From a bacterium (GTDB lineage: Bacteria; Zhuqueibacterota; Zhuqueibacteria; Residuimicrobiales; Krinioviventaceae), in assembly GCA_963693055.1 (NCBI GenBank), contig OY843751.1, positions 3,456,001 through 3,520,000 of the forward strand: a DNA stretch of 64,000 bases, given 5' to 3'. How positions within the stretch are numbered: the stretch's first letter is position 1; each line of letters opens with the position of its first letter. Below the pieces are notes generated by a model, which was not told the origin of the DNA, searched no databases, and was given only the letters and a program-made list of their open reading frames with translations. Made by a program: the position numbers and the translations under genes. Below are positions 11,502 through 64,000 of this stretch, in pieces.

Positions 11502-11535
11502 TTCTCAATCCTGTTTTAATAATTTATTTGTTTAT

Positions 11536-11934
11536 TTATTTATTCAACCACTGCACAAACTCGAGCACATTATTGTCCGGATCTGTTATATACAGCCAGG
11601 TTACCATATCTGGAATCAGCATGGGGCCTTTAAGGATATCTATTTGAGCAGATTTCAACTTTTCCACCAGTGCTTCCAGATTATCCGTCCCAATGGCCAT
11701 ATGCGGACTGTACGGCGGTTTAATTTCATTTTCAGGCGCCGGTATGGGGTTATTTTTCTCGTCCAGCAGTTGCAATAACTCAATGTTGCATCCATCGAGT
11801 TTTAAAAAAGCAAATGCCTCGTGGTGCTCCTCATCCACGGTTTTGGACATGAGCTCCAGTCCCAGTTTTTCCTGATAAAATTTTATCGAAACATCCAGAT
11901 CAGAGACCTGAAACGCGAAATGATCAGCAAACAT
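11536..11934 (-). CDS. VOC/glyoxalase-family protein
   Basis: DHFAFQVSDLDVSIKFY...IELLQ...HMAI...YITDPDNNVLEF metal-binding H/E/H/E pattern. Confidence 0.9.
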   Translation of the reverse strand: MFADHFAFQVSDLDVSIKFYQEKLGLELMSKTVDEEHHEAFAFLKLDGCNIELLQLLDEKNNPIPAPENEIKPPYSPHMAIGTDNLEALVEKLKSAQIDILKGPMLIPDMVTWLYITDPDNNVLEFVQWLNK

Positions 11935-11950
11935 TACGTTCCTCCAGTTC

Positions 11951-18895: not shown

Positions 18896-18898
18896 AAA

Positions 18899-45200: not shown

Positions 45201-45360
45201 CTTGTTGATATTCAATAGGAATTTCAAAGTTAAAACGTTCTTCATTCACCTGTTCAACATCATCTTGATTGGACTGGTTTTGAAGATCATTTTCCTGCGC
45301 AAATCCCATTTGGAACATAATTAAACATAAACTAAGTACCACTATCTGCCAAAATCTCAT
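42295..45360 (-). CDS. Secreted surface protein, 3x repeat + 3x PKD + T9SS CTD (paralog C)
   Basis: Same architecture as 39160-42228. Confidence 0.88.
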   Translation of the reverse strand: MRFWQIVVLSLCLIMFQMGFAQENDLQNQSNQDDVEQVNEERFNFEIPIEYQQVTKREFDQILTSDGAQEFSDQFTYHNAYRIRITGPVIPDSLVSVGLYVGLYYQPILARCGNTTDEKTAIMQNGSKEGFVFNASNTNTWLDIAKTYRYLENSIHVDFSAIEQNEEPIELDIWVCQIPSVGNQIRGYYVDRPDGASITIQAYRITDAHCEEEINNHDIDHIGLDRLLTENGLEEFKHLFTQKHIYRISMSGPMDDYAGGSTTKLYFNQSVPVLIGKASIDVDGLWESVEIGSNESGFLYLNDEEDTYWKDYTQYCGSSTMYVGLSGDWQMHTSAGFQFWIGLDESLGSNLIHEQFSSGLTGISISGYHLVSDQLYASTVESGYDPVSQNELIGMLNDDNAGHYIQSLKQPYLYHLELINRVDTDKPVKMKMGMEIAPVSAIGKGSGTTSPQAAIGDAITNQHNVDMENWENLTSICNADTLFSILSNTPGSQKASKLSLWFGFDEQPGYNVFYENLDGYYLPNAIDVNAYRVVEKQPIPLISINDTVHCELEYLQEGDKYNTDRPYYIESIPDSLKGLVWLKTPYNVLDSTPDSLLTVKVKGAGTVYVVFLKYSWVLPDWMRNSLVYTQDQMFLGERSSYFPIYKINVTPGELVLGDYLEAGERFPYILLFDIEQSPPVANFTYQPETGRAPITVQFMDQSSGYIESWNWDFGDGKSSTEKNPGHTYVLPDTYYVTLTVSSTQGTDSKIDTIYIKDSNLIAEFSADTTSGVNPLTVHFTDESTGSINTWSWDFGDGTTSTEQNPVHQYTTADTFDVTLIVFGPDRSDQIVKEDYIIVFEPAPIVGFTADVTEGTAPLTVQFSDTSSGEIDFWFWDFGDGSFSTRQHPMHQYALVDTFTVSLRVSGPTGISRISKTDYIKLSYDTGIAGLSEQPTTFALYGNYPNPFNPTTNITFDVPRVQHISVSVYNINGGLVETLVDEYKSPGRYTINWQAGQHSSGTYFIRMMTEGYFKIQKCVLLK

Positions 45361-45391
45361 TTAAAATCCTTTTCAATAAAATAATAATCCA

Positions 45392-45413
45392 TGGCCCATT
45401 TTTAAACGAGCTA
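45392..45413 (-). repeat. Conserved intergenic hairpin, copy 2 (degenerate)
   Basis: Plus strand TGGCCCATTTTTAAACGAGCTA in a homologous spacer. Confidence 0.45.
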
Positions 45414-45425
45414 AAGTCAATCAGA

Positions 45426-48400: not shown

Positions 48401-48494
48401 GCTCTTTTATTGTATCAAGGTCATTCTCTTTCGCAAAACCCAAACAACATCCAAAGCAAATTACAACCAGAATAAAAATCTGCCAAAACTTCAT
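45426..48494 (-). CDS. Secreted surface protein, 3x repeat + 3x PKD + T9SS CTD (paralog B)
   Basis: Same architecture. Confidence 0.88.
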   Translation of the reverse strand: MKFWQIFILVVICFGCCLGFAKENDLDTIKEQQDIDNVDDESIKFNIPIEYKQLTKSEFDQILTDDGAQAFSDRFEFHNAFRIHITGPVNNDTIVRFRLNLSSFNQLVIGKSQNTTDNKTAKIQFCENDGFVFDASNTNTWLNILEPYHVNDDYFFVTLSAIAQNEEPIELDIWVCQTIKVRDSVVGYYYDEANGASITIQAYDIIDAHSSVAINNQDIDRIGLDQLLSDEGVDDFKHLFTQKHIYRIHLNGPTNLYSYGSLSKLNFNQNVPVLVGKVTKIYSNSHDYVKIGPSSVDLYNFNTEEYYIWTDFTQLCGENSMYVLLVEDDISHSRPNFIFWIGLDESLGSYLNHEQFRNGLTRIYIDGWHLVSDQQYASTMDFGFDPISQNELKSMLNDDDAGDFISIMDKPYLYNIELINGIDTDKPVKMKMGLDLAPVSAIGKGSGNTTPQAAIGDAINNQYNVDMENWEDLTSICNNDTLFTILSNNSGSQKASQLSLWFGFDDPPGHELFYENLDGYFLPDIINVNAYRVVEKQPITLIGVEDSLNYAFEYLQEGDNYYTDRQYSIQSIPEELKGLVWLKTSYNEFNGSSDSLLAVNIKASGTVYIAYINPEWYLPGWMSKDFVLTSYKIYLSETSSYFPVYKKEVTPGELILGGNQDESYRCPYVVLFEIPEGLPPVADFKYQRKSGSEPLTMQFTDQSTGFIENWAWDFGDGESSTEQNPEHIYAVADTYHVILTISNAVGVDSKTDTVIVTYTVPVAAFHADIKSGDKPLTVSFTDESPGMVDTWSWDFGDGSTSTEQHPVHVYTSADSFDVSLTVSGPGGSDQVVKEDYIVVVEPVPVAQFTADITEGSVPLTVQFSDTSSGVITSWLWDFGDGSSSTDQNPQHVYSKVDTYTVALTVTGPGGSANLVKTDYISVQFPTGIAGLSEQPTSFALYGNYPNPFNPTTNITFDVPAAQHVKVSIYNVNGSLVETLVDEHKSPGRYTINWQAGHHSSGTYFIRMVTEGYSKIQKCILLK

Positions 48495-48526
48495 TTCAAC
48501 CCCGTTTCGAAAATAAATATTAATCC

Positions 48527-48550
48527 CTGGCCCGCTTTTAAACGGACCAG
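48527..48550 (-). repeat. Conserved intergenic hairpin, copy 3
   Basis: Minus strand CTGGTCCG-N8-CGGGCCAG with one G-U pair. Confidence 0.6.
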
Positions 48551-48562
48551 AGAATAATCAGA

Positions 48563-51500
48563 TTATTTCAACAATATACATTTCTGGATCTTGGAATATC
48601 CCTCTGTCACCATCCGGATAAAGTATGTTCCAGATGACCGGTTGCTCGCCTGCCAATTGATCGTGTATCTGCCGGGAGATTTGTGTTCGTCTACCAGCGT
48701 TTCAACCAGACTGCCATTCACGTTGTAAATGCTCACCTTGACATGCTGTGCGGCCGGAACATCGAAGGTGATATTCGTTGTTGGATTAAACGGATTGGGA
48801 TAATTGCCGTACAATGCAAAAGTCGTTGGTTGTTCGGACAAGCCCGCAATACCAGTTGGGAATTGTACTGAAATATAATCCGTTTTTGACAGCTTTGATA
48901 CGCCTCCAGGTCCTGTGACCGTTAGCGTAACCGTATAGGTATCCACTTTGGTGTAGACATGACTCGGGTTCTGCGCGGTACTGGTGAGTCCGTCTCCAAA
49001 CTGCCACAACCACGATATTATAGCTCCGGAAGAAGTATCTGAGAATTGGACTGTCATGGGTACAGATCCTTCAATGATATCTGCAGTAAAGCCTGCAACA
49101 GGCAAAGGCTCAATTGTAATAATATAATTTTTCTTTTCAACCTGATCCGTTCCACTGGGACCGCTAACCGTCAGTTTTACATTGAATGTATCTACAGTCG
49201 TGTATTCATGTACGGGATTTTGTTCGGTACTGGTAGAGCCATCACCAAAATCCCAGCTCCACGCATTGATAGAGCCTGATGATTCGTCAGTAAATGTAAC
49301 TGTTAATGGATTATCTCCACTTGTAGTATCTGCGCTGAACGCAGCAACCGGAGCTGCATCGGTTACATATACTGTATCGGTTTTGCTGTCACTACCGTCA
49401 GTACTGCTGACAGTCAGAGTTACATAATAGCTATCCGCTGTAGCATAGGTATGTTCGGGATTTTGCTCAGTGCTGCTCTCACCATCACCGAAATCCCATG
49501 CCCAATCTTCTACAAATCCTGTGGACTGGTCTGTAAACTGTACGGTCAAGGGTGCCGTACCGGATTTGGGCAGGTGGGTAAAATCCGCAATCGGTGGCAG
49601 CGTCTCGGGAATATCCAACAGCACAACATACTGGCTTTCAGCTCCATTTGCACCCTCGGCAAGGTTGCCGCCAAGCACCAAATCACCCGAACTTACTTGT
49701 TTTTTATATAAATCGAAATATTCTGCTTCATCGCTGATCCCAATCTGATCTCCAGTAGCTGTATATTGGTCAGCAATCCAGTTTGGCAAAGATGCAGCAC
49801 GGCTGTCATAAGCAATGTAAACAGTACCGTTGCCATTTAAACGTACTGCACACAAGGTGTCTGAGATATTACTCTTTTGTTCATTGGGCATTTGCAGCCA
49901 CAACAATCCCTGTAGACTATCAGGAACTGATGTGATATAGTATCCCCGATCAGTGTAATAGCTGTCACCTGCCTGTAGAAAACCCGGTTGATACAGAACA
50001 GAATCACCTGATGTGATTTGTTGTTTCACCGTGTCGGTAGTAATACGATACGGCAAAATAATGATAGAGTCAGGATACTCGTAACCCATTAAATTTTGAA
50101 AAATAATCGAGTTTCCTGGCATTTCATCAAATCCAAACCAGAGAGACAGTTCAGCAGCATTTACAGCATTTTGTTCATTAGTCAAGATTGTATATAATTC
50201 TGCTGAATTGCAGATATCTGATAAATTTTCCCAACCATCAATACTCACATTATGTTGGTTGTTTATTGCATTACCAATAGCAGACTGGGGATTTATCTGG
50301 CCGTTCCCTTTACCAATAGCCGCATTGGGAGAAGAATCCAACTCCATAGCAAGTTTTACAGAATTCTCAAAATCCAGTGAACCTTTTAACACAATATTTA
50401 ATAAATTGCCTTGAGTAAATTGATCGGCAAAAGCCTCTGCACCGTCATTTTTCAACAACTCTTTGAATTGGTTTTGCGTTATAGGATTATAACCAAAAAT
50501 TTCGGTTTGTTTATCATTTTGTAACGTATACCCAGTTATGGTAAAAATATCAGGATAATTTGTATTGTCATTATTTTTATCAAAGGTAATATACTCACCC
50601 AACGATTTATCAAAACTCATCCACAAAACAACACCCGTAGTGTCTAGCGGATTATTAGTTGATAATTCAGTCTTGAAATACAATTCTTGAGTAGATAAAT
50701 AATCAATTTCCTGCCAATTCACATCATTCATTTCAACAGCACTATCAGAATCTGGCCCTATTTTACAAATATTACCATTGCTGGAGATGGCCCTGCCAAT
50801 AACTGCCAGCGGAGTCTGCTTCAGATTAGCAGTAATATATTCCACAACAGTTTCATGGCTATACTCTTTGGGTAACCCCGCAATCTTGAACTCGTAAACA
50901 TAAGGTGCATCTAATTTTTCCAAATATTGAGATGGCAACGTATTGCTCATATAATTATTAAAATCAGACCTGGTAATAGTATGCCGATCTATAATTGCAG
51001 TATGATCAGTAGTATAGGCATTAATAATAAACCTGGGCTCACAATCTCCATAGTCTTCATAAACAATCTCGTCCCCTATAGATGCATACGAACCAATCCA
51101 AATATGTAATTTTGATTGATGATGCATTTGAGGATGTGCAAGCATTGAAAAATAGATCCTTTTATTTGCAAAGTATTTTGTAATATTGAACCATTCAACG
51201 TTTTCTTGATAATCTAACATTAAACATGAATCAGGATCGGTCAAATAAGACAAATTAATTCCCAAATCAACGCTACCTTCATTTCCTGGCTCCGAATCAA
51301 GTCTACCAATCACTAAAGATGGTACAGATTCAAGTTTCCATAGAAAATCAGTAATTGTATCATATACATAAGCTCCACTTATTTCTATTTTATAAACAAA
51401 TGGATAATTAGGCAAGTTTGCAAACCCATCTGCCTCACCTTCTTTTATTAATTCCTCAAGTTCTGCTCGAGGTATATATTCATGTTCAAAAGATATTCTT

Positions 51501-51577
51501 TTCTCATTTTCTTGTGCAAAACCAAAATTTACAATCACACAGCACACCAATAAAAAACACATCATAATATGTTTCAT
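48563..51577 (-). CDS. Secreted surface protein, 3x repeat + 3x PKD + T9SS CTD (paralog A)
   Basis: Same architecture; most divergent N-terminus. Confidence 0.88.
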   Translation of the reverse strand: MKHIMMCFLLVCCVIVNFGFAQENEKRISFEHEYIPRAELEELIKEGEADGFANLPNYPFVYKIEISGAYVYDTITDFLWKLESVPSLVIGRLDSEPGNEGSVDLGINLSYLTDPDSCLMLDYQENVEWFNITKYFANKRIYFSMLAHPQMHHQSKLHIWIGSYASIGDEIVYEDYGDCEPRFIINAYTTDHTAIIDRHTITRSDFNNYMSNTLPSQYLEKLDAPYVYEFKIAGLPKEYSHETVVEYITANLKQTPLAVIGRAISSNGNICKIGPDSDSAVEMNDVNWQEIDYLSTQELYFKTELSTNNPLDTTGVVLWMSFDKSLGEYITFDKNNDNTNYPDIFTITGYTLQNDKQTEIFGYNPITQNQFKELLKNDGAEAFADQFTQGNLLNIVLKGSLDFENSVKLAMELDSSPNAAIGKGNGQINPQSAIGNAINNQHNVSIDGWENLSDICNSAELYTILTNEQNAVNAAELSLWFGFDEMPGNSIIFQNLMGYEYPDSIIILPYRITTDTVKQQITSGDSVLYQPGFLQAGDSYYTDRGYYITSVPDSLQGLLWLQMPNEQKSNISDTLCAVRLNGNGTVYIAYDSRAASLPNWIADQYTATGDQIGISDEAEYFDLYKKQVSSGDLVLGGNLAEGANGAESQYVVLLDIPETLPPIADFTHLPKSGTAPLTVQFTDQSTGFVEDWAWDFGDGESSTEQNPEHTYATADSYYVTLTVSSTDGSDSKTDTVYVTDAAPVAAFSADTTSGDNPLTVTFTDESSGSINAWSWDFGDGSTSTEQNPVHEYTTVDTFNVKLTVSGPSGTDQVEKKNYIITIEPLPVAGFTADIIEGSVPMTVQFSDTSSGAIISWLWQFGDGLTSTAQNPSHVYTKVDTYTVTLTVTGPGGVSKLSKTDYISVQFPTGIAGLSEQPTTFALYGNYPNPFNPTTNITFDVPAAQHVKVSIYNVNGSLVETLVDEHKSPGRYTINWQASNRSSGTYFIRMVTEGYSKIQKCILLK

Positions 51578-53906: not shown

Positions 53907-53942
53907 AAAAAAAACGCCGGTCAAAAACAAACCGGCGTTTTG
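53907..53942. terminator. Bidirectional intrinsic terminator between convergent genes
   Basis: AAAACGCCGGT-N9-ACCGGCGTTTT flanked by A and T runs. Confidence 0.85.
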
Positions 53943-53970: not shown

Positions 53971-55302
53971 TTAAATTTCGGGCAAGCTTATAATAAATCG
54001 CACACCATGTTCAAGATTCTCCACAGTGAACGATCCCTTATGCTTGACAATAATTTCTTTACATATCATGAGACCAAAACGGTTTTCCAAATCGGCTTCT
54101 ACATTTGTCAAGGGCTGAAACAATTGTTTCAACTCGCTCTTATCAAGACCTTTAAACCGATTGCTAAATAATAACTTTACTCTACCCTGATCAGGATTAT
54201 AGCAGGTTTGTAGATTAAAGTTATAAATATTGGTTTTCTCAATGAAAAAATTACAAATATTATACAATGCTAAATGCATCTGGGTTTTATCAATTTTGAC
54301 ATCAGGAATATCGCTTTGAATCTGTACATCAAAAATAGGATTATTTTTTGTATAAATGGTATGAATAAAATCCATAAACTCTTTAACTAGATCATTTATA
54401 CTACAATTTTCAAGCCGGGTCTCTATTCGGATATTATCAACCAAACCGTTTGACATGCTTTGTAGTTCTTTTAACAAAAATGAAATATTACCCAACTTGT
54501 CCGCTACACGATCCAAATTTGCATTCTTTTCCAAATAGCGGGTAACTAATTCTAGACTGCTGCTGGTTTCAAGAAGAAAATTATTCAAAAGGTGACCTAT
54601 ACTAGCGGCTACTTTGGTTTCGGCAGCAACTTTTTCCACATCTATCAATGCACCTGAAGTATTTGAAAGACTTGCAAAGGATTGCTCTTGCAATTGATAA
54701 AACATGGCATTACGAATTGCAATTGCTGCCTGGGTTGAAAAATGCTGTACAAGCTCCTGTTTGATTTTAGAATCACCAATCAAAGGATTTGCGCTATCGG
54801 CATAAATCAGACCCAGAATATCATTATCAATAATCAATGGGCAACAGATAATACTCTTGGAGTCCAAATGTTTATTGGGGAATAATTGTACTTTAGAAAC
54901 GTCATCAAAGTAATAGATGGCTTTGTGTTGATATGTTTTTAAAAGAATATTTTTAACAATCTTGAAATTTTTCTTGTCCAGATTATTATGGTTTGCATCT
55001 CGGGCAATTTTAAACTCCAGACGGCCCTGGGGAGTTTTTAATAATAAAAAGCCTCTTTCTGCCTGAATTACAGAGATAAGGGAATCAATAACAGATTCAA
55101 GAACCTGACCAAGACTAAGGGTTGAATAAATTTGACCAAAGCTGTTTACTACGGTTGAAATATAATCCCAATGTTCAGGGGAGTGGTCCAAGGTAGGATC
55201 AAGTTGATATTTACCGTGATCTTTGAATTCCAGATTGTCTTGTTGATAATCAATAAAATGTTCATCGTCACGTATGAGTTCTTTATTCAAGTCGTTCTTC
55301 AT
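53971..55302 (-). CDS. GAF + histidine-kinase-like protein with a degenerate ATP-binding domain (pseudokinase / possible phosphotransferase)
   Basis: Start likely ATG 55302 (GGAGGA RBS); GAF (AERGFLLL, SIICCPL, GLIYADS, QAAIAIRNA); H-box AASIGHLLNN; N-box and G1 box lost. Confidence 0.8.
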   Translation of the reverse strand: MKNDLNKELIRDDEHFIDYQQDNLEFKDHGKYQLDPTLDHSPEHWDYISTVVNSFGQIYSTLSLGQVLESVIDSLISVIQAERGFLLLKTPQGRLEFKIARDANHNNLDKKNFKIVKNILLKTYQHKAIYYFDDVSKVQLFPNKHLDSKSIICCPLIIDNDILGLIYADSANPLIGDSKIKQELVQHFSTQAAIAIRNAMFYQLQEQSFASLSNTSGALIDVEKVAAETKVAASIGHLLNNFLLETSSSLELVTRYLEKNANLDRVADKLGNISFLLKELQSMSNGLVDNIRIETRLENCSINDLVKEFMDFIHTIYTKNNPIFDVQIQSDIPDVKIDKTQMHLALYNICNFFIEKTNIYNFNLQTCYNPDQGRVKLLFSNRFKGLDKSELKQLFQPLTNVEADLENRFGLMICKEIIVKHKGSFTVENLEHGVRFIISLPEI

Positions 55303-55339
55303 TGCCCGACATCCTCCACACCACACTATTCTGCTATAT

Positions 55340-55367
55340 AAAAAGCAAAGGGCCCAAGTAGGGCCCT
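55340..55367 (-). terminator. Intrinsic terminator after the small lipoprotein gene
   Basis: Minus strand AGGGCCC-TACTT-GGGCCCT followed by TTGCTTTTT. Confidence 0.7.
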
Positions 55368-55379
55368 GTTGTATTTAAA

Positions 55380-55961
55380 TCAATCTTTTGTAATCAAGTA
55401 AATCGAAAAATGTTCAATATCAAATGTTACGCGTTGACGGCCTCTGTCCCATTTGAATTTAGTATCATTTGCTGCTGCTGAATTGGAAACTTTGACCCAT
55501 TTAGATCCGTTCCAATTCCACAGAGAAACATTGTCATTTTGAAGTTCTCTAAAGTTCATAACCAATTTTGCATTTGGTGTAAACTCTAAACCTGAAGGAT
55601 CAAAGGTAAAAATCAAATCACCTTTTGAAGTCAAATCTGCCTGAGCATAAATACGCGTATTGCGCTTTGAACTCATTGAGAATGGAGGCACATACAAGTA
55701 ACCAATATTGCGTTTGCCAATCCATCCGCCTTTGCGGTAATTGATTTTTTTGCTTGTTTTCCAGGTTCTAACGATAGTAAAATCGTCATAAGGTAACTCG
55801 TCAATAGCGGTAATACCAGCTATTTTATCCACCCCCATCCCATCATCATCACTTTGTGTTACATCTGCCAATGGTGCATTCGGCATTTTTTCACAACCGG
55901 TTAGCTGCAAACCCACGATCACCATGATCGTTACGAACAACAACCCTCTTAAATGTTTCAT
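55380..55961 (-). CDS. Lipoprotein with a ZU5/GAIN-like beta domain ending in an HFS motif
   Basis: Lipobox LTGC; KGGWI...LYVPPFSM...FTFDPSGLEF..A.L...W.W....W...VTFDIEHFSIY, a pattern typical of ZU5-like domains. Confidence 0.7.
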   Translation of the reverse strand: MKHLRGLLFVTIMVIVGLQLTGCEKMPNAPLADVTQSDDDGMGVDKIAGITAIDELPYDDFTIVRTWKTSKKINYRKGGWIGKRNIGYLYVPPFSMSSKRNTRIYAQADLTSKGDLIFTFDPSGLEFTPNAKLVMNFRELQNDNVSLWNWNGSKWVKVSNSAAANDTKFKWDRGRQRVTFDIEHFSIYLITKD

Positions 55962-56026
55962 CTCTCTCTCCTCTTACTATTTATTTTGATTGTGATTAGG
56001 GGTCTTATTAAATTTACTTTATTACA

Positions 56027-56043
56027 AGCAAATTGTAGGCCAG
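56027..56043 (-). promoter_or_regulatory. Sigma54 (-24/-12) promoter of the HFS lipoprotein gene
   Basis: Minus strand CTGGCCTACAATTTGCT = TGGC-N7-TTGCT with exact GG-N10-GC spacing, 65 bp upstream of the ATG. Confidence 0.65.
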
Positions 56044-56247
56044 AAATTGTCAAAAGAACACTTGGAAACTATAAAAAATGCAAAAAACCACGAAATATCT
56101 TATCATTTATACTAATTATTTACATATTTTCAAAGAAAAATATTAAAAAACTAAACATTTTTTTCAAATTACATAAAATTCAGCATAACAAACCATGCTT
56201 TTGTTGCTTTAACTGGACAACTGTTGAGTTTATGGGACAATAAACCA

Positions 56248-59200
56248 TCACATTGAGGCTTTTACTGTCTTTATACTTTTTAACAAGTCCAGATTTTCCG
56301 GATACTTTATTAATGATTGCTTATAAGAGTCTGGTTCGATATGAGTCAAACATAACTTTAAGCATTGGTATGCTTTACGAAAACATTTATAACTCTTGAT
56401 TTTATCTCCGGCTTTGAAATACATTTTGCCGCGGAGATAATAAATGCTTTTCACTTGAAGCATTAACCCCATCGATTGCGCAATTTCTTCTGCACGGTCC
56501 AGAGTTTTCTCTATCACTTCTATAGGTTTCTGCGCTTTGTACATTGCATTTGCAAACAATATCATTATTTGCAATTTATACCACTTGAAATTAGAATCTT
56601 CTATTACTTTTTGTAAGGATGGCAATATCTTTAAAGCATTTGCCATTTGGCCTTGTTCAATATAATATTGTAAATAAAACATCTCTATCTGCATCTTAAG
56701 CATAATATTAGAATCTTTGTCAGATAATGCTTTGGCTTCATGCAGAGATGGGTTTTCAAATTCACCAGTTTCAAGAAATTTAATTCTGGACTTCATTACC
56801 AGATATTCACCGAGCTTGGATTTATCGTTCAAAGATTCTGTAATTTTTAAACAGGCATCAATAGACATTTGGGCCTGCTCTATTTGATATAAAGCAACAT
56901 AAACCCGGCTTTTTTGAAAGAGCATTTCAGCTTTTGTAGACTCGCTTCGTATACGCTCAGAAAACTTTATTCCTTCATCAAGAATATTTAAAGCATTTGT
57001 ATAATCTTCACGTAAAAAAAGCAATTCACCAATATTACAATGCGATGCTACCAATCCACGAATATCACCAATTCGGTTTTTCAAATCTTTGCATTTTTTA
57101 AAATAATTCAAGGCACGCTCATATTGTCCACTTTCCATCAACAGTATGCCCAGATTATTATAATTTTCTGCAAGTCCGGCCCAGTCACCGGCCTCTTCCA
57201 TTACCTCCATACTTGAACGCCAATAGGTACTGGCTTTTTCAGGATCACCGGAAACATTATATACAATACCCAAATTATTCAGGGTTGCGGCCATACTCTT
57301 TTTATCGCCCATTTCTTTCTTAACTGAAGCACTTTTTGCAAAATATTTAATAGCATATTCAATATTTCCGGAATAAAAGCTAGCTCCACCCAACGTATTC
57401 AATGTTAAAGCCATAATACGAGATGGAGAGTTTTCAGGCAACAAATTCAATGCCTTTTCACCCAACTGAATTGCTTCCTGATAGTTACCTCTCATAATTG
57501 ATAGCCATGCCAATTCTCTCAAAATTAACGCACGTTCTATAATAGCACTTGCAGGAGCCTGCTTTAATGCACGGTTTAAAGCTTCATCCGCCTGATCTAC
57601 ATTACCAATTTTCTGATAAAGATCAGAAATCCGTCTTTCAAGGGCTGATTTGGCAACACCCGCTTTATAATCCGGTAACAATTCGCTATATAAATCAAGA
57701 GCAGTAGTTGAATCTCCCAACGAATCTTTTAAATCAGCTACGTTTCGTTTAAAAAAACGAACAAGCCTTTTTTTATCTGCAGGACTATGGTCCAATGCTA
57801 GCTGGGCAATAACCAGTGCACGTCTATATGAATTTGAATTTTTTAAAATATTAATTGCTTGAGAAGCAAGCGGTATCCCTTCAACGATATACCCTGCTCT
57901 TAAAAAATGTAAAGCCTTTTGATTTGGAGCATATTCCATGTCTGAACACTCTAACAAATATGCTGCTATTCTAGCAGTAATATCAGATTTAGCAGTTTCA
58001 GACAATTGTCCCATAACTGCATCTCTAAAAGCAATAGATAAAAAGCTGTAAACCGTACCCAGTTTGTCGTGATGTTCCAACAGAATACGCTTATCCATCA
58101 ATATTTCTACATTATGCTGGATTTCATTCTCATCACAGTTGACAAGATGTAATAGTAATCGCTTTTCTATTGCAGAATCATAGACTGCGATATTTTGTAA
58201 TATATTTTTTTGGAGTTCAGACAGGTTTCTGAATGTATTCAGATACAGCGCATTGATACTGGAAAGATCCAATGATTCCAGATCATAAGTTTCACTCATC
58301 ATCCAGGTTCTATCAGATCGGATAAAGAAACCTGCATTATTCAAAGCTGTAACAATAGCAGCTACAATCTCAACATTACCACCACTTTTACCATACAATT
58401 GCTGGTAAAATCTGGCAGGAAATAAAGAGGGCTTGAAAGCTGTAAGTAAGAGCTGTTCAAGCTCGGTTTCTTCTAAACACTTTACTCGAAAATCATATAC
58501 CGCAGCAAGTGAATCTCGACCTTTTTGAATATTTAATGCTGCTTCATCAGACTGTCGGTCTGTGGTAATGGTTACAACTATAGATACTTTATCATGGACC
58601 AGCGAACGACCAAGATAATAAATCAGGTCCAGCACTGCATTATTAGCCTGTTCCAGATTACGCAAAATAATTACTATACGCTTTCTTCTGCTTAAATCCC
58701 GAACCAGATTTGAAAATTCTTCCATAAACCGAAAACGTCCAAGTTCGTAATCATCCCGATTTTGACGTATTGCCAACAGCTCAGCTTCGGTTTCGGAAAC
58801 AAGTTTTTCAATATCTGCATACCCTTTAAAAGCATCAATAAAAGGTTGATACAGTGAGCCCTTGTCATCCCGGCACCAGCTCTCAAGGACAGATATATTA
58901 TCCAACTGCATTTTCGATTTTACATCCTGTAAAATTCTATATGCACCAGAGCCTTCATTGCCATTTATTGTAATAAAGTTGATTACATCATCATGTTGTG
59001 ACAAGCCAATGGATATTTGCAGTAAAAGTTTTTGAATTTCAGGATCACGCAACTTTAAAAATGCATCCATAATTAATGGAGAAATAAGGTCACGTGTTTT
59101 TGCAGAATCATAATCTTCAACACCCAAAGCGGTCAACAATTCTTCGCAACTTGCAAACCTCTCCAAAGGATCTTTAGACAAGAGTCTGAAAATAACAGAT

Positions 59201-59967
59201 TCAAGTTTATCAGAAAGATCAACTCCCAGAGCAGAAAATCTTTTGGGCAGCGTGCGCAAATGCCCGCTCTTGATATCATCCGGACTGCCATAAAATGGAG
59301 CTTTTCCGGTCAGGGCCCAGTACATTAAAATACCAACAGCATAAAGATCAGTAGAAAAGGTAACTGGCGCTTTTTGAAAAAGTTCAGGCGCCATGTATTC
59401 TAATGTGCCGCTCAGCGTTTGTTTGAGTTTTATATTTTCATCTTTACGTACGGCAAGACCAAAGTCCATTACCTTAATATTGGGATTCCCCTTTTCATCA
59501 TGGTAAACCATGATGTTTTCGCTTTTTATATCACCGTGCAATATTCCAGAAGCATGAATATAACCCAGTGCCTGTACAAGCTGTATAAACAACTTTACCA
59601 GAATTTCGCTGGAAAAAGAACCAACGGCATCAAAAAAATCTTTGCCATTCACATATTCCATTGTATAGAAATACTCATCACGATCAGAAAATTTACCAAA
59701 ATCAATTACCCGTACCAGGTTAGGGTGCCTGAGTGCGGATAAAATAGCAAATTCCCGACGCAAAGATTCTATAATCTCTGGATCTGAATGTTTTGCATGA
59801 AAGACTTTGAGAACAATGTTCTCATTATCACGTGCGGTATCCTCAACAAGAAAAACAATTCCCATCCCCCCACGGCCCAGCTCCTTAATCACTCGATAAC
59901 GGCCGTTTATCACATCGTCCACAGTTTTCGTTTTTAGTTCAGGAGATTGAAAAACTGCATTTTCCAT
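56248..59967 (-). CDS. Hanks-type Ser/Thr kinase - degenerate AAA/STAND-like NTPase - TPR protein
   Basis: GRGGMG, VLK, HPNLV, HGDIKSEN, DFG, GTLEYMAPE; central GNEGSGAYR / IILRNLEQAN / SGGN; TPRs (LNTLGG, LNNLGIVY, YNNLGIL). Confidence 0.92.
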   Translation of the reverse strand: MENAVFQSPELKTKTVDDVINGRYRVIKELGRGGMGIVFLVEDTARDNENIVLKVFHAKHSDPEIIESLRREFAILSALRHPNLVRVIDFGKFSDRDEYFYTMEYVNGKDFFDAVGSFSSEILVKLFIQLVQALGYIHASGILHGDIKSENIMVYHDEKGNPNIKVMDFGLAVRKDENIKLKQTLSGTLEYMAPELFQKAPVTFSTDLYAVGILMYWALTGKAPFYGSPDDIKSGHLRTLPKRFSALGVDLSDKLESVIFRLLSKDPLERFASCEELLTALGVEDYDSAKTRDLISPLIMDAFLKLRDPEIQKLLLQISIGLSQHDDVINFITINGNEGSGAYRILQDVKSKMQLDNISVLESWCRDDKGSLYQPFIDAFKGYADIEKLVSETEAELLAIRQNRDDYELGRFRFMEEFSNLVRDLSRRKRIVIILRNLEQANNAVLDLIYYLGRSLVHDKVSIVVTITTDRQSDEAALNIQKGRDSLAAVYDFRVKCLEETELEQLLLTAFKPSLFPARFYQQLYGKSGGNVEIVAAIVTALNNAGFFIRSDRTWMMSETYDLESLDLSSINALYLNTFRNLSELQKNILQNIAVYDSAIEKRLLLHLVNCDENEIQHNVEILMDKRILLEHHDKLGTVYSFLSIAFRDAVMGQLSETAKSDITARIAAYLLECSDMEYAPNQKALHFLRAGYIVEGIPLASQAINILKNSNSYRRALVIAQLALDHSPADKKRLVRFFKRNVADLKDSLGDSTTALDLYSELLPDYKAGVAKSALERRISDLYQKIGNVDQADEALNRALKQAPASAIIERALILRELAWLSIMRGNYQEAIQLGEKALNLLPENSPSRIMALTLNTLGGASFYSGNIEYAIKYFAKSASVKKEMGDKKSMAATLNNLGIVYNVSGDPEKASTYWRSSMEVMEEAGDWAGLAENYNNLGILLMESGQYERALNYFKKCKDLKNRIGDIRGLVASHCNIGELLFLREDYTNALNILDEGIKFSERIRSESTKAEMLFQKSRVYVALYQIEQAQMSIDACLKITESLNDKSKLGEYLVMKSRIKFLETGEFENPSLHEAKALSDKDSNIMLKMQIEMFYLQYYIEQGQMANALKILPSLQKVIEDSNFKWYKLQIMILFANAMYKAQKPIEVIEKTLDRAEEIAQSMGLMLQVKSIYYLRGKMYFKAGDKIKSYKCFRKAYQCLKLCLTHIEPDSYKQSLIKYPENLDLLKSIKTVKASM

Positions 59968-59982
59968 TTAAACCATTTTTCG

Positions 59983-61554
59983 TTATTCCCAATACCAATG
60001 CGCTATGTTGAAAAAAGTCGATACAGGAGAAAATTGTATTCCCTTTAATTGCTTATCCATTCCAACAATTCGTTCAGGGATCCACAAAAATGTTGCGGGT
60101 TGTTCCTGAACAATAATTTCTTGAAATTCATACCACAAAGGCCTGGATTTTTCGGGCTCCAAGATGTCAGGGGCCTGTTCTATTATTTCATCTATTCGTT
60201 TATTCTGATAACATGACAAATTGAAACCGGGAGATTCAATCATAGAAGAATGCCAAATAGGATAAACATCAACCTTGGTTGCTGACATCATACCCAGTAA
60301 CAAGGCATCAAAATCGCGGGACATTAAATCTTCAACATAAGCTGAAAATTCAAGACGCTGTGGAATCACCTTGATTCCAACCTTTTTTAACATTTCCTGA
60401 ATCATTACGAGTGCATCTTCGCGTACCTGGCTGCCAATATTTGTTAACATTTGAAATTCAAAATCTTTTCCATTTTTATCAAGCCAGCCATCATTATTGC
60501 TGTCAGTCCAACCCTCTTCTTTTAACAGAGTTTTTGCGGTTTCGGGATCAAAGGGTATTGATTCAAGATCAGGATTATATGCCCACAACATGGGATGTAT
60601 AGGGCTGTCATAAACTTTACCATATCCTTTTAACAAATGCTGAACCAGAGTCGGACGATCAATTGACATGGTCAATGCTCTTCGAACACGGGCACTTGCA
60701 AACAAAGATCTACTTGTATTCCATGATATTTGATTAAATTGAGCATATGGAAAATGCTCTAAACGCAGTTGGGGTGAATTGCTAAAATCTGCGTTCGCCG
60801 GAGGTACACCTTCGATAAAATGAATTTCACCAGTTTTAAGCTGTGTAAGGAGTTGTGTTTTATCCGGTACAATTTTAAATACAATCCGTGGAAGCTTGGG
60901 TAACCCTTCAACTGAAAATTTTTCGTTTCTTAACAGCTCAATAAATTGATTTGGTACCCAGGACTGTATAACATATGGACCCGAAAAAACACCATCCAGT
61001 GCAAAATCAAAAGATTTTATTTGTTCTGCGGATTTATCGGCAAATATATGTTTGGGAACGATAACACCTTCACAGGCATCCATTAACTGATAGGGATAAA
61101 GCGTATCAAAATAAAAATCAATTGTTGAATCATTTAATACACGGACTTGCGAAATATGTTCTTTGACATTCGCACCAGCCCACCCGATATCAGGATCGGT
61201 TTGTAATTGAAACGTAAATTCAACATCTGCAGCAGTCAATGGTACACCATCAGACCAAAGCACATCAGATCTCAAATGAAATCGGATTCGACTGTCATTG
61301 TCCATCATCTCCCAGGAACGGGCAAGCGCGGGTTTAAAACTGACAAAATCCGGTTGCTCAATTAACAGGGACTGAAACAACATTTTAGACATTTCAGAAC
61401 CAAATCGCGAGGTTGTAACCAAAGGATTAAAGGAATCTGTATCACCTGGTACACCAATAATCAAAACATTTTTGGTGGCATTTTTTCCACATGAAAATAG
61501 AAAAATCCCCAAGACAGATAATAAAAGCAGAATTGAATTTATTTTAATTTTCAC
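59983..61554 (-). CDS. Peptide/nickel ABC transporter substrate-binding lipoprotein (family 5, OppA/AppA-like)
   Basis: GTG start; lipobox LFSC; PALARSWE, FHLR.DV.WSDGVPLTAADVEFT, GPYV, RVRRALTMSIDR. Confidence 0.92.
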   Translation of the reverse strand: MKIKINSILLLLSVLGIFLFSCGKNATKNVLIIGVPGDTDSFNPLVTTSRFGSEMSKMLFQSLLIEQPDFVSFKPALARSWEMMDNDSRIRFHLRSDVLWSDGVPLTAADVEFTFQLQTDPDIGWAGANVKEHISQVRVLNDSTIDFYFDTLYPYQLMDACEGVIVPKHIFADKSAEQIKSFDFALDGVFSGPYVIQSWVPNQFIELLRNEKFSVEGLPKLPRIVFKIVPDKTQLLTQLKTGEIHFIEGVPPANADFSNSPQLRLEHFPYAQFNQISWNTSRSLFASARVRRALTMSIDRPTLVQHLLKGYGKVYDSPIHPMLWAYNPDLESIPFDPETAKTLLKEEGWTDSNNDGWLDKNGKDFEFQMLTNIGSQVREDALVMIQEMLKKVGIKVIPQRLEFSAYVEDLMSRDFDALLLGMMSATKVDVYPIWHSSMIESPGFNLSCYQNKRIDEIIEQAPDILEPEKSRPLWYEFQEIIVQEQPATFLWIPERIVGMDKQLKGIQFSPVSTFFNIAHWYWE

Positions 61555-61563
61555 AACTGTCCC

Positions 61564-62985
61564 TTAATAAATGATATCGTCAGAAACATTCAGTTTTTCT
61601 ACTTGTAATCCTTTTTTATCTTTTTGATAAACAGGCAAAGAGAGTGTAAATGTTGAACCTATTCCTAATTCACTATCAACTACAATGGAACCACCATGTT
61701 TTTTGGCAATTGCCTGACAGATACTGAGACCAAATCCATGACCTTCTGCTTTGTCCGTGAACAGAGGTGTAAAAATCTGACTCAATTTAGATTTTTCAAT
61801 ACCGGGGCCGGTATCTTGAATGCATATATCCACGCAATTCTCTTTTTCGAAATAGCGTGTTTTAAATGTAATATGTGTATCCGGACGGACTTCAATAGCA
61901 TTCTTTGTAATATTGTAAAAGATCTGCTGAATTTGTCCCTTGTCAACATCAATCTCTGGTACTTCCGGATCAAAATCCTGTTCAAAACTGGCACCCGATT
62001 TTTTATAAACCGGACGAATAAATTCCATAAAATCATGAACAAGCTGATTCAGGTTACAAGGCTCAATTTTTGTTTCAAGATGTGAATTGTTCATGAGTCC
62101 CTGAGAGAACCGGGTCATATTATCAAGTTTTTTGGCAACAAATTCCAGGTGTCCTAAAACCTTTTTTGTATCTCCCTCATTTACCAGATAGTGTATAGCC
62201 AGCTCAAGGTTTCCATAAATGATTGATAACAAGTTGTTCAACTCGTGACCAATACGTGCAGCCATCTTGCCACGTGCAGCCATCTTTTCAGCATAAATCA
62301 TACGGTCCTGAGCATTCTCTAGCTGCTCATAAGATACTTTGACCTTTTGGTATAATTGAGCATTGCGTATACCTTCGGCAGCCTGATCAGCAAACAACTG
62401 GAACAATTGTTTCTTGATCTTGGATTTACCAATAAGCGGTTGTGAACTGTCTGCATAGATAACACCTATCAATTCACCATTAATAAACATAGGACAGCAG
62501 ACAATACTGCGCAATTTTAATTGACGCACACTTTGAGTAGGAGAGTAATTTTGATCTGAAAAAACATCTTCAATATAAACAATCTCTTTTTTACGGATAG
62601 TTTCGTGTAAATAGCTGTTACTAATTTTGAATTCACTGTCATTCAAAATCTTTTTATCAGCATCACGACCAATCTTAAATTCCATCTCTCCTTTTGTGTT
62701 TTTCAACACAAGAAATCCTCGCTCCGCATGAATAACTGAAATAGCAGCATCCATAACATGCAGCAGAACTCTTTTTATATCCAAAGAACTGTTCATCAAC
62801 CGGAATGTTTCCAGCAATTTAGAAATAAAATTCCAATCGCCTATGGAACTGTCTTCTTCCTGTGCCTCAATCTCTTCGTCCAGATCCTCAATTTCCTGAT
62901 CAAACTGACTTATCAGATCCATAAAATCATTTTCAGCACCAGCTTCTTCTTTTGGAAACAGTTCCCTATCTTTATCCGTGAACAT
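61564..62985 (-). CDS. Cytoplasmic GAF-domain sensor histidine kinase
   Basis: GAF; H-box ARIGHELNN; N-box NITKNAIE; G1 DTGPGI; F-box IFTPLFTDK; G2 GHGFGLSIC; GSTF; no TM helix. Confidence 0.93.
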   Translation of the reverse strand: MFTDKDRELFPKEEAGAENDFMDLISQFDQEIEDLDEEIEAQEEDSSIGDWNFISKLLETFRLMNSSLDIKRVLLHVMDAAISVIHAERGFLVLKNTKGEMEFKIGRDADKKILNDSEFKISNSYLHETIRKKEIVYIEDVFSDQNYSPTQSVRQLKLRSIVCCPMFINGELIGVIYADSSQPLIGKSKIKKQLFQLFADQAAEGIRNAQLYQKVKVSYEQLENAQDRMIYAEKMAARGKMAARIGHELNNLLSIIYGNLELAIHYLVNEGDTKKVLGHLEFVAKKLDNMTRFSQGLMNNSHLETKIEPCNLNQLVHDFMEFIRPVYKKSGASFEQDFDPEVPEIDVDKGQIQQIFYNITKNAIEVRPDTHITFKTRYFEKENCVDICIQDTGPGIEKSKLSQIFTPLFTDKAEGHGFGLSICQAIAKKHGGSIVVDSELGIGSTFTLSLPVYQKDKKGLQVEKLNVSDDIIY

Positions 62986-63063
62986 TATAAAGCCTCCTAA
63001 TGCGCTTTACAGCAAAATCATAAAATACAATTGGATAACCTTACGGCTAGCCACTAATTTGAG

Positions 63064-63079
63064 TACAAATATTGTGCCG
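63064..63079 (-). promoter_or_regulatory. Possible sigma54-type promoter of the HK-SBP-STK operon
   Basis: Minus strand CGGCACAATATTTGTA: GGCAC -24 box, exact spacing, -12 box TTGT instead of TTGC. Confidence 0.45.
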
Positions 63080-63233
63080 CAAAGATAGCACAATACTAAA
63101 TCTGTTCTACAAACAAGAATAACTCAAATGTTGAATTCCATACAACATATCAACACCGATATAACAGCCCAACCTATTGTTTTTACGAGCCCTGACGAGC
63201 AAGTTTAGGTCAGACATCACGTACACAGAAAAT

Positions 63234-64000
63234 TTAATATTTAAAAAATCTTTCCTGCAAATATTCTCCAAACAAATTAATTAACAAAACTGTTACAACA
63301 ATGGCCACTCCGGGAAACACACTGATCCACCAACCATCTATTAATACCTGCCGGCCCTCATTAATTATATTACCCCAGCTTGGAGTAGGTGGTTGAACAC
63401 CCAGGCCAACAAAACTCAATGCAGATTCAACAAGAATCACATTTCCAAAAAGCAGTGTTGCTGAAACAGCAACCGGGCCAATTAAATTTGGCAGTAAATG
63501 CTTAAATAACAACCTCATTCTAGAGATGCCTATAACGGTTTCTGCCAGAATAAAATCTTTATGCTTTAAAGCAAGGGTCTGGTTGCGCACCAGTCTTGCA
63601 ATATCCATCCAGCTAAATAGCGCTATTATCAAGACAATCCACAATACTGAACTTTTTCCCAATACAGCGGCAACGGACAAGATCAACAAGAATTGCGGAA
63701 TCGCCATAAACACATTGATCACATTATTCAAGACAAAATCGAACCGATCAAAAAAACCACTTGTCAACCCATAAGGTATTCCAATCAATAGTGACATACC
63801 TACGGATAATAATGCCACCCATAAGGAAATTCTCCCTCCATATAACACTCTTGCCATAACATCTCGACCAAATTTATCAGTACCCATCAGATGTCCCGCA
63901 TTTGGTGCATGATATGAGTGTTCAAGATCATGAGTTACAGGATCGTAATTAATCAACAACGGTCCTGCAATTAAACTGATCAGTAATATCAACAACAAGA
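63234..64000 (-). CDS. Peptide ABC transporter permease (OppC/DppC-like); 5' end lies outside the window
   Basis: HLMGTDKFGRDV..RVLYGGRISL, EAA-like loop DFILAE..IG, ESALSFVGLG..PPTPSWG, WWISVFPG. Confidence 0.93.
   Translation of the reverse strand, partial: LLLILLISLIAGPLLINYDPVTHDLEHSYHAPNAGHLMGTDKFGRDVMARVLYGGRISLWVALLSVGMSLLIGIPYGLTSGFFDRFDFVLNNVINVFMAIPQFLLILSVAAVLGKSSVLWIVLIIALFSWMDIARLVRNQTLALKHKDFILAETVIGISRMRLLFKHLLPNLIGPVAVSATLLFGNVILVESALSFVGLGVQPPTPSWGNIINEGRQVLIDGWWISVFPGVAIVVTVLLINLFGEYLQERFFKY

Follow-up and report, generated by a model that had tools for sequence, protein, structure and literature searches.

A peptide importer, a Ser/Thr kinase with a TPR superhelix, a histidine kinase and a small lipoprotein with a predicted cleavable tail are encoded together at the locus analysed here. 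I give about even odds to the reading that this is a kinase-type form of a widely distributed cassette, in which the lipoprotein tail is freed, imported and read by the TPR region of the Ser/Thr kinase (STK), which would set a GAF histidine kinase (HK) and its paralog. The window is a stretch of 64,000 nucleotides (positions 3,456,001-3,520,000 of the forward strand of contig OY843751.1, assembly GCA_963693055.1), and the locus occupies its segment 53,971-64,000. The features are listed in the direction of transcription.

Past the end of the window, to about 66582: remaining genes of the opp run, namely oppB and two ABC ATPase genes (oppD/F)
63234..64000 (running to 64040), minus strand: OppC-type permease, last of the oppD-oppF-oppB-oppC run (Pfam)
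63064..63079, minus strand: sigma54-like site CGGCA-N5-TTTGTA of putative function, about 95-117 bp 5′ of the HK gene
61564..62985, minus strand: cytoplasmic GAF-HisKA-HATPase histidine kinase, HK (Pfam)
59983..61554, minus strand: SBP_bac_5, a family 5 solute-binding lipoprotein (SBP) of an AppA-like clade (Pfam)
56248..59967, minus strand: Pkinase-AAA_16-TPR protein, i.e. STK, inactive AAA/STAND-like NTPase and TPR superhelix (Pfam)
56215..56239, minus strand: TGTCC-N15-TGTCC direct repeat, present in 5/5 window-type loci at 164-213 bp 5′ of the sigma54 site
56027..56042, minus strand: sigma54 -24/-12 site 5′ of the lipoprotein gene
55380..55961, minus strand: stand-alone ZU5/MAIN-fold lipoprotein (lipobox, model, fold search)
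55383..55406, minus strand: codons for the octapeptide SIYLITKD, whose release is predicted; last beta-strand (188-192) plus two residues
55349..55367, strand not given: GC-rich hairpin between the lipoprotein and pseudo-kinase genes
53971..55326, minus strand: GAF-HATPase pseudo-histidine kinase, an HK paralog whose ATP-binding motifs are lost (Pfam)
53911..53941, minus strand: strong terminator ending the unit against a convergent hydrolase gene

All genes of the segment lie on the minus strand. As the first-pass annotation had stated, they are co-directional, the HK and SBP genes are 9 bp apart and the SBP and STK genes 15 bp, and an oppC gene, in agreement with Pfam, lies upstream of the HK gene. 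The opp run is present in all seven window-type loci, and the gene order of the window is kept in four other genomes belonging to two genera. The pseudo-kinase gene lies directly 3′ of the lipoprotein gene in 7/7 loci holding a pseudo-kinase (five genomes, L089 and L090). Chance adjacency of the opp and kinase genes was rejected, since the order is kept in 7/7. The proposed linkage of importer, STK and HK with the lipoprotein holds in five of the seven genomes but not in G004 (97% complete) and G020 (78%), where opp, SBP, STK and HK are kept and neither the lipoprotein nor the pseudo-kinase was found.

The lipoprotein is 193 aa long (its relatives are about 185-250 aa) and, as had been claimed, it has a lipobox (LTGC) and the C-terminus EHFSIYLITKD. 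The lipobox is followed by a disordered linker of ~35 aa, a beta-sandwich and HF|S at residues 184-186. Pfam gave no family above the cut-off. The structure model has a pLDDT >90 across the domain, its top 12 Foldseek matches are the ZU5 domains of ankyrin/UNC5 (E 1e-4 to 1e-3), and ZU5 is found on 51% of the members of its Atlas look-alike cluster; model and fold search agree on a ZU5/GAIN-B beta-sandwich. In the model, the HX(S/T) motif (H184-F185-S186) lies in the turn between strands 177-184 and 188-192, and the tail forms one strand of the sandwich. The H, F and Y of HF[ST]xY are invariant in 50/50 members. With the ZU5 fold and an invariant HF[ST], the suggestion of an HF|S motif is borne out. 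Self-cleavage is likely, the cut being placed by analogy with MAIN domains, and the predicted tail is 7-9 residues long in 84/86 lipoproteins. The fold by itself would account for the S-x-Y-A/hydrophobic conservation. It was also considered whether the lipoprotein is a piece of a larger MAIN protein; this was rejected because 84/86 have a signal peptide, promoter and stop of their own.

A sigma54 site precedes 42 of the 44 lipoprotein genes, compared with 39/164 control genes and 5/44 reverse complements, in keeping with the promoter originally proposed. Scanning the window for the consensus gave 51 two-mismatch matches against 55.5 expected, which is chance level; the evidence comes from the cross-locus comparison and not from the window scan. 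The other half of the proposal, that the lipoprotein gene is separately terminated, stands only in part. The hairpin follows the lipoprotein gene in 7/7 window-type loci, with a clear U-run limited to the window's genus, and these sequence features in part support a role as a partial terminator or stabiliser. The sigma54-like site upstream of the HK gene was recognized in 5/5 lipoprotein-bearing loci by reading the sequences, and it scores just below the threshold. The TGTCC repeat is a candidate activator-binding site. The window's genome has four copies, of which the copy at 56215..56239 is the only intergenic one; no genome-wide enrichment was found, the counts in five other genomes being at control level, and the repeat is not common to the commoner cassette described below.

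The STK protein (1239 aa) has intact Ser/Thr kinase motifs. Its middle domain had been called a dead NTPase, correctly so: the Walker A Lys and the Walker B Asp-Asp are gone in 7/7 orthologs, which have GNEGSG[AHI] and LR[NDS][LIA]E and not the Walker A GK[ST] and the Walker B acidic pair. Walker motifs are intact in four distant STK-AAA-TPR proteins from other lipoprotein loci. The TPR region, at residues 745-1239, is modelled as an LGN/Pins-like superhelix with conserved Asn positions and is a candidate peptide receptor; no RRNPP protein was among the matches listed (from the top 50) in a fold search with the window's TPR model. The TPR core is the best-kept part of the STK among lipoprotein-bearing orthologs (73-79% vs 60-64% for the kinase), and likewise between G004 and G020, which are without the lipoprotein (46% vs 38%).

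Histidine kinases are defined by the H-box HE and the N, G1 and G2 boxes. All of these are intact in the 7/7 HK orthologs, which occur at at least 59% in 7/125 genomes. The HK N-terminus is acidic (19 D/E in 47 aa) and contains a conserved acidic helix. The pseudo-kinase is 40% identical to HK and, as described earlier, ATP-dead: the His is kept, and the following Glu, the N-box Asn, the G1 Asp and the G2 glycines are lost in 5/5 orthologs. Its start is probably ATG 55302 and not GTG 55326, judging from a GGAGG 10 nt upstream. The HstK-family hybrids likewise combine a Ser/Thr kinase and a GAF histidine kinase in one unit, as a single polypeptide (PMC2853384). Unlike in those hybrids, the kinases of the window are in two genes (separate in 7/7) with an SBP gene in between, the NTPase is dead, and there is an extra pseudo-kinase paralog. 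In G020 the two genes adjoin and overlap, in the order of the fused protein. The fused STK-TPR-GAF-HK form invoked earlier did not turn up as a close relative among 44 matches of 681-2169 aa.

Is this gene combination common in the class? I surveyed 125 genomes. The lipoprotein family was found in 44 and the AppA-like SBP clade in 49; both occur in 42 genomes, the lipoprotein only in 2, the SBP only in 7 and neither in 74, counts that are favoured by profiles built from genes chosen at these loci. Five of the seven genomes with only the SBP are <90% complete. The two genes lie within 12 kb of each other in 34 of the 42 genomes carrying both. At 41 further lipoprotein loci, a TPR protein was found in 36, a sigma54 activator in 23 and an AppA-like SBP in 21; a TPR protein occurs at about 1% of random windows of the window's genome. 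In the commoner cassette, the lipoprotein is accompanied by a stand-alone TPR protein of 415 aa, whose gene is within 700 bp of the lipoprotein gene in 23/30 loci scored, and by a sigma54 pseudo-receiver activator. Neither this activator nor the stand-alone TPR protein was found in the window's genome. Conservation of the gene combination was the test that the first-pass annotation had set for itself, and it is far wider than was proposed: throughout the class, the lipoprotein is associated with the SBP clade, with TPR proteins and with sigma54 sites.

Distances between tails follow those between the neighbouring TPR proteins more than the ZU5 body accounts for, with a partial r of 0.70, compared with a mean of 0.05 and a maximum of 0.44 for 77 control windows of the body; the TPR protein used is the stand-alone one of 415 aa, which is absent from the window's genome. 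The tail tracks the TPR protein over the activator (0.50 vs 0.08) and over the SBP (0.43 vs 0.07). In these comparisons, the distances for the TPR protein and the activator are almost collinear (r 0.94), the ZU5 body is asymmetric in the same direction though less so, and relatives do not count as independent samples.

These results are consistent with the following mechanism. The ZU5-fold lipoprotein, preceded by a sigma54 site, would cut itself at HF|S, and its eight-residue tail would be freed upon unfolding or degradation of the envelope-anchored body. The cassette's own AppA-like importer may then take up the freed tail, for which binding in the TPR groove of the STK is predicted. The STK, by contact with HK, would likely set how active the GAF kinase and its ATP-dead paralog are, and the pseudo-kinase would serve as an induced brake. 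The conserved gene combination and the tail-TPR co-variation speak for the peptide circuit as originally wired, whereas the occurrence of the core without the lipoprotein (2/7) and the lack of a loop-closing regulator speak against it. No response regulator or activator was found in any of the seven window-type loci and, the commoner cassette's activator being missing from the genome, the suggested feedback on sigma54 promoters found no support. The window's genome encodes 27 activators. Two orphan receiver-type activators are widespread (41/43 and 27/43 genomes), so that neither is a marker of the system. Near oppD, one genus has a third paralog of the GAF kinase, which is found in unrelated settings without regulators and was rejected as a lead to the output.

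The AppA-like SBP is the sole family 5 SBP found in the window's genome and could serve nutrition. Its nearest solved relative is Bacillus subtilis AppA (PDB 1xoc; E 3e-140, the next being 2e-96), and App imports peptides of 5-10 aa (PMC10569065). Because G004 and G020 hold the importer-kinase core without the lipoprotein or the pseudo-kinase, this core can run on something else. It may sense other peptides, such as nutrient or envelope-turnover fragments, with the lipoprotein and the pseudo-kinase as a sigma54-controlled output or add-on in this lineage; the downstream position of the lipoprotein gene and its own promoter fit such an arrangement. This explanation is unlikely, given that the SBP clade occurs almost only in lipoprotein genomes (42/49) and is missing from 76/125 genomes of the class, and that the tail co-varies with TPR proteins. 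Moreover, the SBP tree tracks the cassette type and not the bacterial family, the window's SBP grouping with those of other STK-AAA-TPR lipoprotein loci across families. B. subtilis App is a general permease encoded away from the signals, whereas the window's SBP clade is tied to the lipoprotein cassette.

With the same parts, the tail could also be a quorum-like signal from cell to cell that differs between kin groups, as in Rap-Phr. Tail classes go with particular TPR clades; G124 has two cassettes with different tails and different TPR clades, and in tandem arrays two tail classes adjoin three TPR proteins. The layout under sigma54 would also suit positive feedback. I consider this quite unlikely, since the tails are hydrophobic and buried until release, SRYAIVKT recurs in four loci and the same tails occur in different genera, a diversity below that expected of pherotypes, and this reading does not account for passage across the outer membrane. 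Porins are narrow for an octapeptide, and the tail offers nothing by which force could pull on it; a report on the cell's own envelope is therefore more likely than a population signal.

It is similarly improbable that the tail is never released and the nicked lipoprotein acts whole in the envelope, for example by binding or gating the SBP or the permease, with the TPRs binding protein partners such as the acidic HK N-terminus. MAIN products do stay associated (bioRxiv 10.64898/2026.05.12.724683), LGN-type TPRs bind protein segments according to structure titles, and the conserved acidic helix opens HK. However, a periplasmic protein cannot contact a cytoplasmic TPR, yet it is the last eight residues that co-vary with the TPR, and every member retains the catalytic H and S/T though only a short tail lies behind the cut.

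It is known that the RRNPP systems of Firmicutes (Rap-Phr, PlcR-PapR, NprR and AimR) import a peptide by Opp and sense it by a cytoplasmic TPR protein (Bernard et al. 2023, PMC10075063). They are recognized by a propeptide of 10-100 aa, Sec export, maturation by an external peptidase, a TPR receptor of 250-500 aa and adjacent genes (PMC10075063). The circuit with the imported tail resembles them in the exported precursor, the short C-terminal peptide, the Opp/App-type importer and the TPR protein encoded beside the precursor, the STK-TPR gene being directly upstream of the lipoprotein gene. A signal peptide with a lipobox is present in 55/63 lipoprotein members. In contrast, the precursor is a folded lipoprotein of 193 aa with a built-in cut site, and self-cleavage is predicted instead of external-peptidase maturation. 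The TPR protein of the window, at 1239 aa with a kinase and a dead NTPase, exceeds the receptor size, which the 415-aa protein of the commoner cassette would fit, and its TPR fold is nearest LGN/Pins. The importer lies within the cassette, the outputs are sigma54 and kinases, and the host is KSB1-type. On the best reading, the circuit would be a peptide loop from envelope to cytoplasm that operates like RRNPP signalling yet falls outside RRNPP membership.

The lipoprotein shares with MAIN and other ZU5-superfamily autopeptidases (Zhang et al. 2012, PMC3482391) the beta-sandwich, HX(S/T) before the last strand, export and the predicted HF|S cut. MAIN domains cleave at HF|S, and only SDS or heat separated their bound products (Brogan and Rudner 2026, bioRxiv 10.64898/2026.05.12.724683). 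MAIN proteins are large (mean 158 kDa), run from signal peptide through cargo domains and MAIN to a C-terminal surface anchor, and free a big N-terminal cargo from the anchor behind the cut. In contrast, the lipoproteins of the cassette have an N-terminal lipid anchor, no cargo and only 7-9 residues behind the cut, eight of them in the window. The MAIN authors state that the C-terminal fragment has not been linked to any signalling, and TPR, lipoprotein and ZU5 do not occur in their main text. Related MAIN domains hold the cut tail tightly, an observation against a free tail. In the FIIND (ZU5-UPA) of NLRP1/CARD8, degradation of the N-terminal ZU5 part brings about release (PMC12575685). ZU5 self-cleavage, fragments that stay bound, a disordered N-terminus and a freed C-terminal piece as the signal are shared with the lipoprotein reading; the animal system is cytosolic, proteasome-driven and frees a folded UPA-CARD, in contrast to an envelope protein and an octapeptide, so that this is an analogy only.

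I found no published description of this lipoprotein-importer-kinase arrangement. With somewhat less than even confidence, the family as a whole may be a tethered-peptide tripwire: the ZU5 lipoprotein would pre-cut its last strand and free the tail only when unfolded or chewed, with AppA-like import, LGN-like TPR receptors and interchangeable outputs (sigma54 pseudo-receiver activator, Ser/Thr kinase, or histidine kinase with a pseudo-kinase brake). The parts are all soluble domains suited to production in Escherichia coli, so that cleavage and binding can be resolved without culture of the host. With the sequence of the octapeptide known and a transporter and receptors as candidates, the cassette, present in 44/125 genomes of a class that has been little studied, bears on TPR peptide sensing outside Firmicutes and on signalling by the fragment behind HF|S. 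If the tripwire is true, it would be a class of peptide signalling in diderms that stands apart from RRNPP, and it would mirror in prokaryotes the release logic of NLRP1 and adhesion GPCRs. It would be a new way to make a peptide signal and would suggest a bacterial counterpart of the tethered-agonist logic in animal ZU5/GAIN proteins.

It was found that the gene calls agree with the genes, strands and gaps reported for the locus at 53971..64000 in the first-pass annotation. The Pfam families of this minus-strand locus are as follows:

Permease (-): BPD_transp_1
HK, the GAF histidine kinase (-): GAF-HisKA-HATPase
SBP, the peptide-binding protein (-): SBP_bac_5
STK, the Ser/Thr kinase-TPR protein (-): Pkinase-AAA_16-TPR
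Lipoprotein (-): no Pfam family assigned
Pseudo-kinase, the HK paralog (-): GAF-HATPase

With oppB and two ABC ATPase genes located past the window edge, no importer component is missing, and the kinase operon contains the importer's binding protein. A profile search found no other family 5 binding protein in the genome (6.5 Mb, one contig). As had been proposed, the NTPase part of the STK is dead (the Walker A lysine and the Walker B acidic pair are missing in 7/7 orthologs) while its kinase catalytic motifs are intact, and the pseudo-kinase is ATP-dead, lacking the H+1 Glu, the N-box Asn, G1 and G2 in all five orthologs. The HK motifs are intact in 7/7 orthologs. No membrane segments were found in the STK, HK or pseudo-kinase. 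A third GAF-kinase paralog family occurs in other fetched neighbourhoods (L120-L129, and L092 at 18079-19434); six of these loci have it convergent with one and the same conserved secreted protein of 460-500 amino acids, and no regulator is nearby. Elsewhere in the window, positions 42295-51577 (-) encode three secreted paralogs in tandem, each about 1000 amino acids long, with a common C-terminal tail and repeated WDFGDG units, which I take to be PKD-like.

The most likely mechanism, to which I give about an even chance, is a loop from a self-cleaving lipoprotein through tail import, the TPR protein/STK and the kinase to sigma54 promoters. The lipoprotein would cut itself after export, and the tail behind HF would be held in the fold until the lipoprotein body is unfolded or degraded. 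From tail release onward, I infer the steps. Release by degradation would be analogous to that described in the available text on NLRP1/CARD8 (PMC12575685). The SBP would capture the freed tail in the periplasm, and the imported tail would bind the TPR groove of the STK, which would alter GAF kinase activity, the dead NTPase being able to serve only as a scaffold. A putative activator would then drive the sigma54 promoters for more lipoprotein and pseudo-kinase, and the latter may damp the HK by pairing with it or by competing for the STK.

Is the gene combination conserved? The full order oppD-F-B-C, HK, SBP, STK, lipoprotein and pseudo-kinase recurs in four other genomes of two genera (G001, G005, G014, G017), as the first-pass annotation would predict, and the STK/lipoprotein/pseudo-kinase end is also on two short metagenome contigs. 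The lipoprotein query matches 6 of 61 genomes, among them these four and the window's own, and full-length STK orthologs occur in 7 of 61; HK orthologs occur in 7/125 genomes, the same seven as the STK. Two genomes, G004 (97% complete) and G020 (78%), have the opp, SBP, STK and HK genes and lack the lipoprotein and pseudo-kinase at the locus; outside the locus, the broad lipoprotein profile gives nothing beyond partial matches within larger frames. The STK and HK genes of G020 overlap, arranged as they would be in a fusion. It is unlikely that the opp-STK-HK core reads other peptides, with the lipoprotein only an output. No response regulator or sigma54 activator was found in any of the seven window-type loci.

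The lipoprotein model has a low-confidence linker (22-54) followed by a confident beta-sandwich, and H184-F185-S186 is placed in a turn ahead of the last strand. The top 12 Foldseek rows are ZU5 domains of ankyrin and UNC5. As a lead, the Atlas look-alikes are unnamed clusters from Ignavibacteriota and Kryptoniota and one from Gemmatimonadota, in which 51% of the members carry ZU5. HF and the next Y are invariant in 50/50 aligned members. The tail is 7-9 residues long in 84 of 86 members (65 have 8), close kin included; one exception ends at a contig edge and the other extends to 18. In the available text of Brogan and Rudner (bioRxiv 10.64898/2026.05.12.724683), bacterial MAIN domains cleave the F-S bond of HFS, the products remain bound until SDS or heat releases them, and no signalling is tied to the C-terminal fragment. 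MAIN proteins are described there as large, with the anchor behind the cut, whereas the lipoprotein has its anchor in front and only an octapeptide behind. Its fold and motif are those of a ZU5/MAIN domain, but its architecture is not that of a MAIN protein; the bacterial ZU5 domains described in the consulted part of Zhang et al. 2012 (PMC3482391) are in toxins and large surface proteins. That the tail is never freed is quite improbable in my estimate.

A large protein with a weak ZU5-profile match (G000:C1:4726703-4732084) is probably a MAIN-type surface protein of the usual kind. HF[ST] lipoproteins occur as tandem arrays, with 3-5 in each, at L012 3600-6519, L045 8455-12096, L046 8507-10587, L047, L050 and L062. 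The first three have two tail classes, SRYAIAHSx and SRYALGxE, and adjoin three TPR proteins (AAA-TPR, TPR, STK-AAA-TPR) and an HD-domain gene. A subtilase (Peptidase_S8) gene within the L062 array (10536-11963) is a candidate for body degradation and tail freeing.

A profile search (cut-off E 1e-20, set in the gap from 7e-22 to 1e-16; weaker matches are mostly in large frames) found stand-alone lipoprotein members in 44/125 genomes of the class. I fetched and annotated 41 lipoprotein loci outside the window type, several of which stop at contig edges. A TPR protein is present in 36/41: 33 TPR415, a distinct TPR-only family of 415 amino acids, and five STK-AAA-TPR in which the Walker motifs are intact, with one more truncated where the locus stops. 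A sigma54 activator is present in 23 (18 belong to a single clade, and its receiver seems atypical when aligned) and the SBP in 21. Random 19.5-kb windows, a rough control from the window's genome only, gave about 1%, 8% and 0.2%, respectively. Most often the opp genes come first, followed by SBP, activator, lipoprotein and TPR. In L064 6526-11336 (G010), the SBP, activator and TPR genes are each in pieces and the lipoprotein is whole, reflecting decay or assembly errors. A receiver-type sigma54 activator, an orphan that follows a run of apparent lipid A genes (L095 7892-9274; G000:C1:5635891-5637273), has 73-83% identical relatives in 41/43 genomes of the order. At L001 11975-15564, an ATPase/nuclease-like gene is followed by a UvrD-like helicase, a pair presumably resembling Gabija-type defence.

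SBP profile matches fall into a high group (49/125 genomes, including three partial matches placed there on their per-residue score) and another, distinct group scoring <=424 bits. Lipoprotein and high-group SBP are both present in 42 genomes and both absent from 74; two have the lipoprotein only and seven the SBP only, one of these seven being G120, flagged unpublished, which underlies that row only. The Fisher p of 2e-23 is too strong, because related genomes are not independent and the genes behind the two profiles were themselves taken from these loci; the match persists within families (e.g. 1/14 and 2/14 in family f9). The two genes lie <=12 kb apart on one contig in 34/42 genomes and on different contigs in the other eight. 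In a midpoint-rooted tree of 16 SBPs, the three cassette types separate across families, and the window SBP groups with those from other STK-AAA-TPR lipoprotein loci. The closest solved structure is B. subtilis AppA. App takes up peptides of 5-10 residues according to the part of PMC10569065 available, a range that fits the tail lengths.

Among 23 adjacent lipoprotein/TPR415 pairs, tail distance tracks TPR distance with the ZU5 body removed (partial r 0.70; 0.67 in 17 pairs without the Thr-type clade), and none of 77 overlapping eight-column body windows equals this (mean 0.05, max 0.44). Tail distances agree better with those of the TPR than with those of the activator (0.50 vs 0.08, 14 loci) or the SBP (0.43 vs 0.07, 12 loci), although the correlation between TPR and activator distances is 0.94, the body is asymmetric in this direction too, if less so, and neighbour co-inheritance can produce part of the signal. 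One genome has two cassettes in which different tails are paired with different TPR clades.

Neither TPR415 nor the cognate activator was found in the window's genome, which leaves the STK there as the sole candidate receptor. The TPR domain of the STK is modelled as a confident superhelix, and among the matches listed the nearest folds are LGN/Pins-peptide complexes, with no RRNPP protein. Asn 857, 898, 938 and 978, presumably groove-type positions, are invariant in 8/8. Among orthologs from lipoprotein-bearing loci, identity is 73-79% in the core TPR repeats vs 60-64% in the kinase domain; for the two orthologs without a lipoprotein, the figures are 41-45% vs 46-47%. The sign is a weak one, since the core is also the best-kept part between those two (G004 and G020).

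The proposed sigma54 promoter of the lipoprotein was recovered: scored with a sigma54 consensus, an at-threshold site precedes 42/44 first lipoprotein genes, against 39/164 control genes with upstream gaps, 5/44 reverse complements and 3.5 for shuffled sequences. All five window-type loci carrying the lipoprotein also have a weaker site ahead of the HK. In the same five, the lipoprotein promoter is preceded, at a distance of 164-213 bp, by a TGTCC-N15-TGTCC repeat; the window's genome has four copies, only the locus copy being intergenic. Since the repeat is directly behind the STK stop codon and shows no genome-wide enrichment, I call it only a putative activator site. The gene had also been described as terminated. 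A hairpin follows it in 7/7 loci, but a clear U-run only in the window's genus, and the pseudo-kinase is probably transcribed by read-through from the lipoprotein promoter. Upstream of the sigma54 site in the commoner cassette, GGCTGA (17/41), CATTTC (24/41) and CGTTAC (15/41) exceed shuffles (3, 6 and 4); these words are likely the site of the pseudo-receiver activator.

The locus acts like RRNPP signalling, but in the window it departs from two of the five criteria in the available text of PMC10075063. I consider it rather improbable that the tail is a cell-to-cell signal. The STK and HK resemble a split HstK-type hybrid, as far as PMC2853384 was available. The cassette is real and conserved. 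It is apparently undescribed; no paper on it was found in the literature searched, most subscription papers lying outside its reach. With a lipoprotein predicted to cut itself as peptide source, the cassette would be a form of Opp-TPR peptide signalling in which the peptide is produced by a new route.
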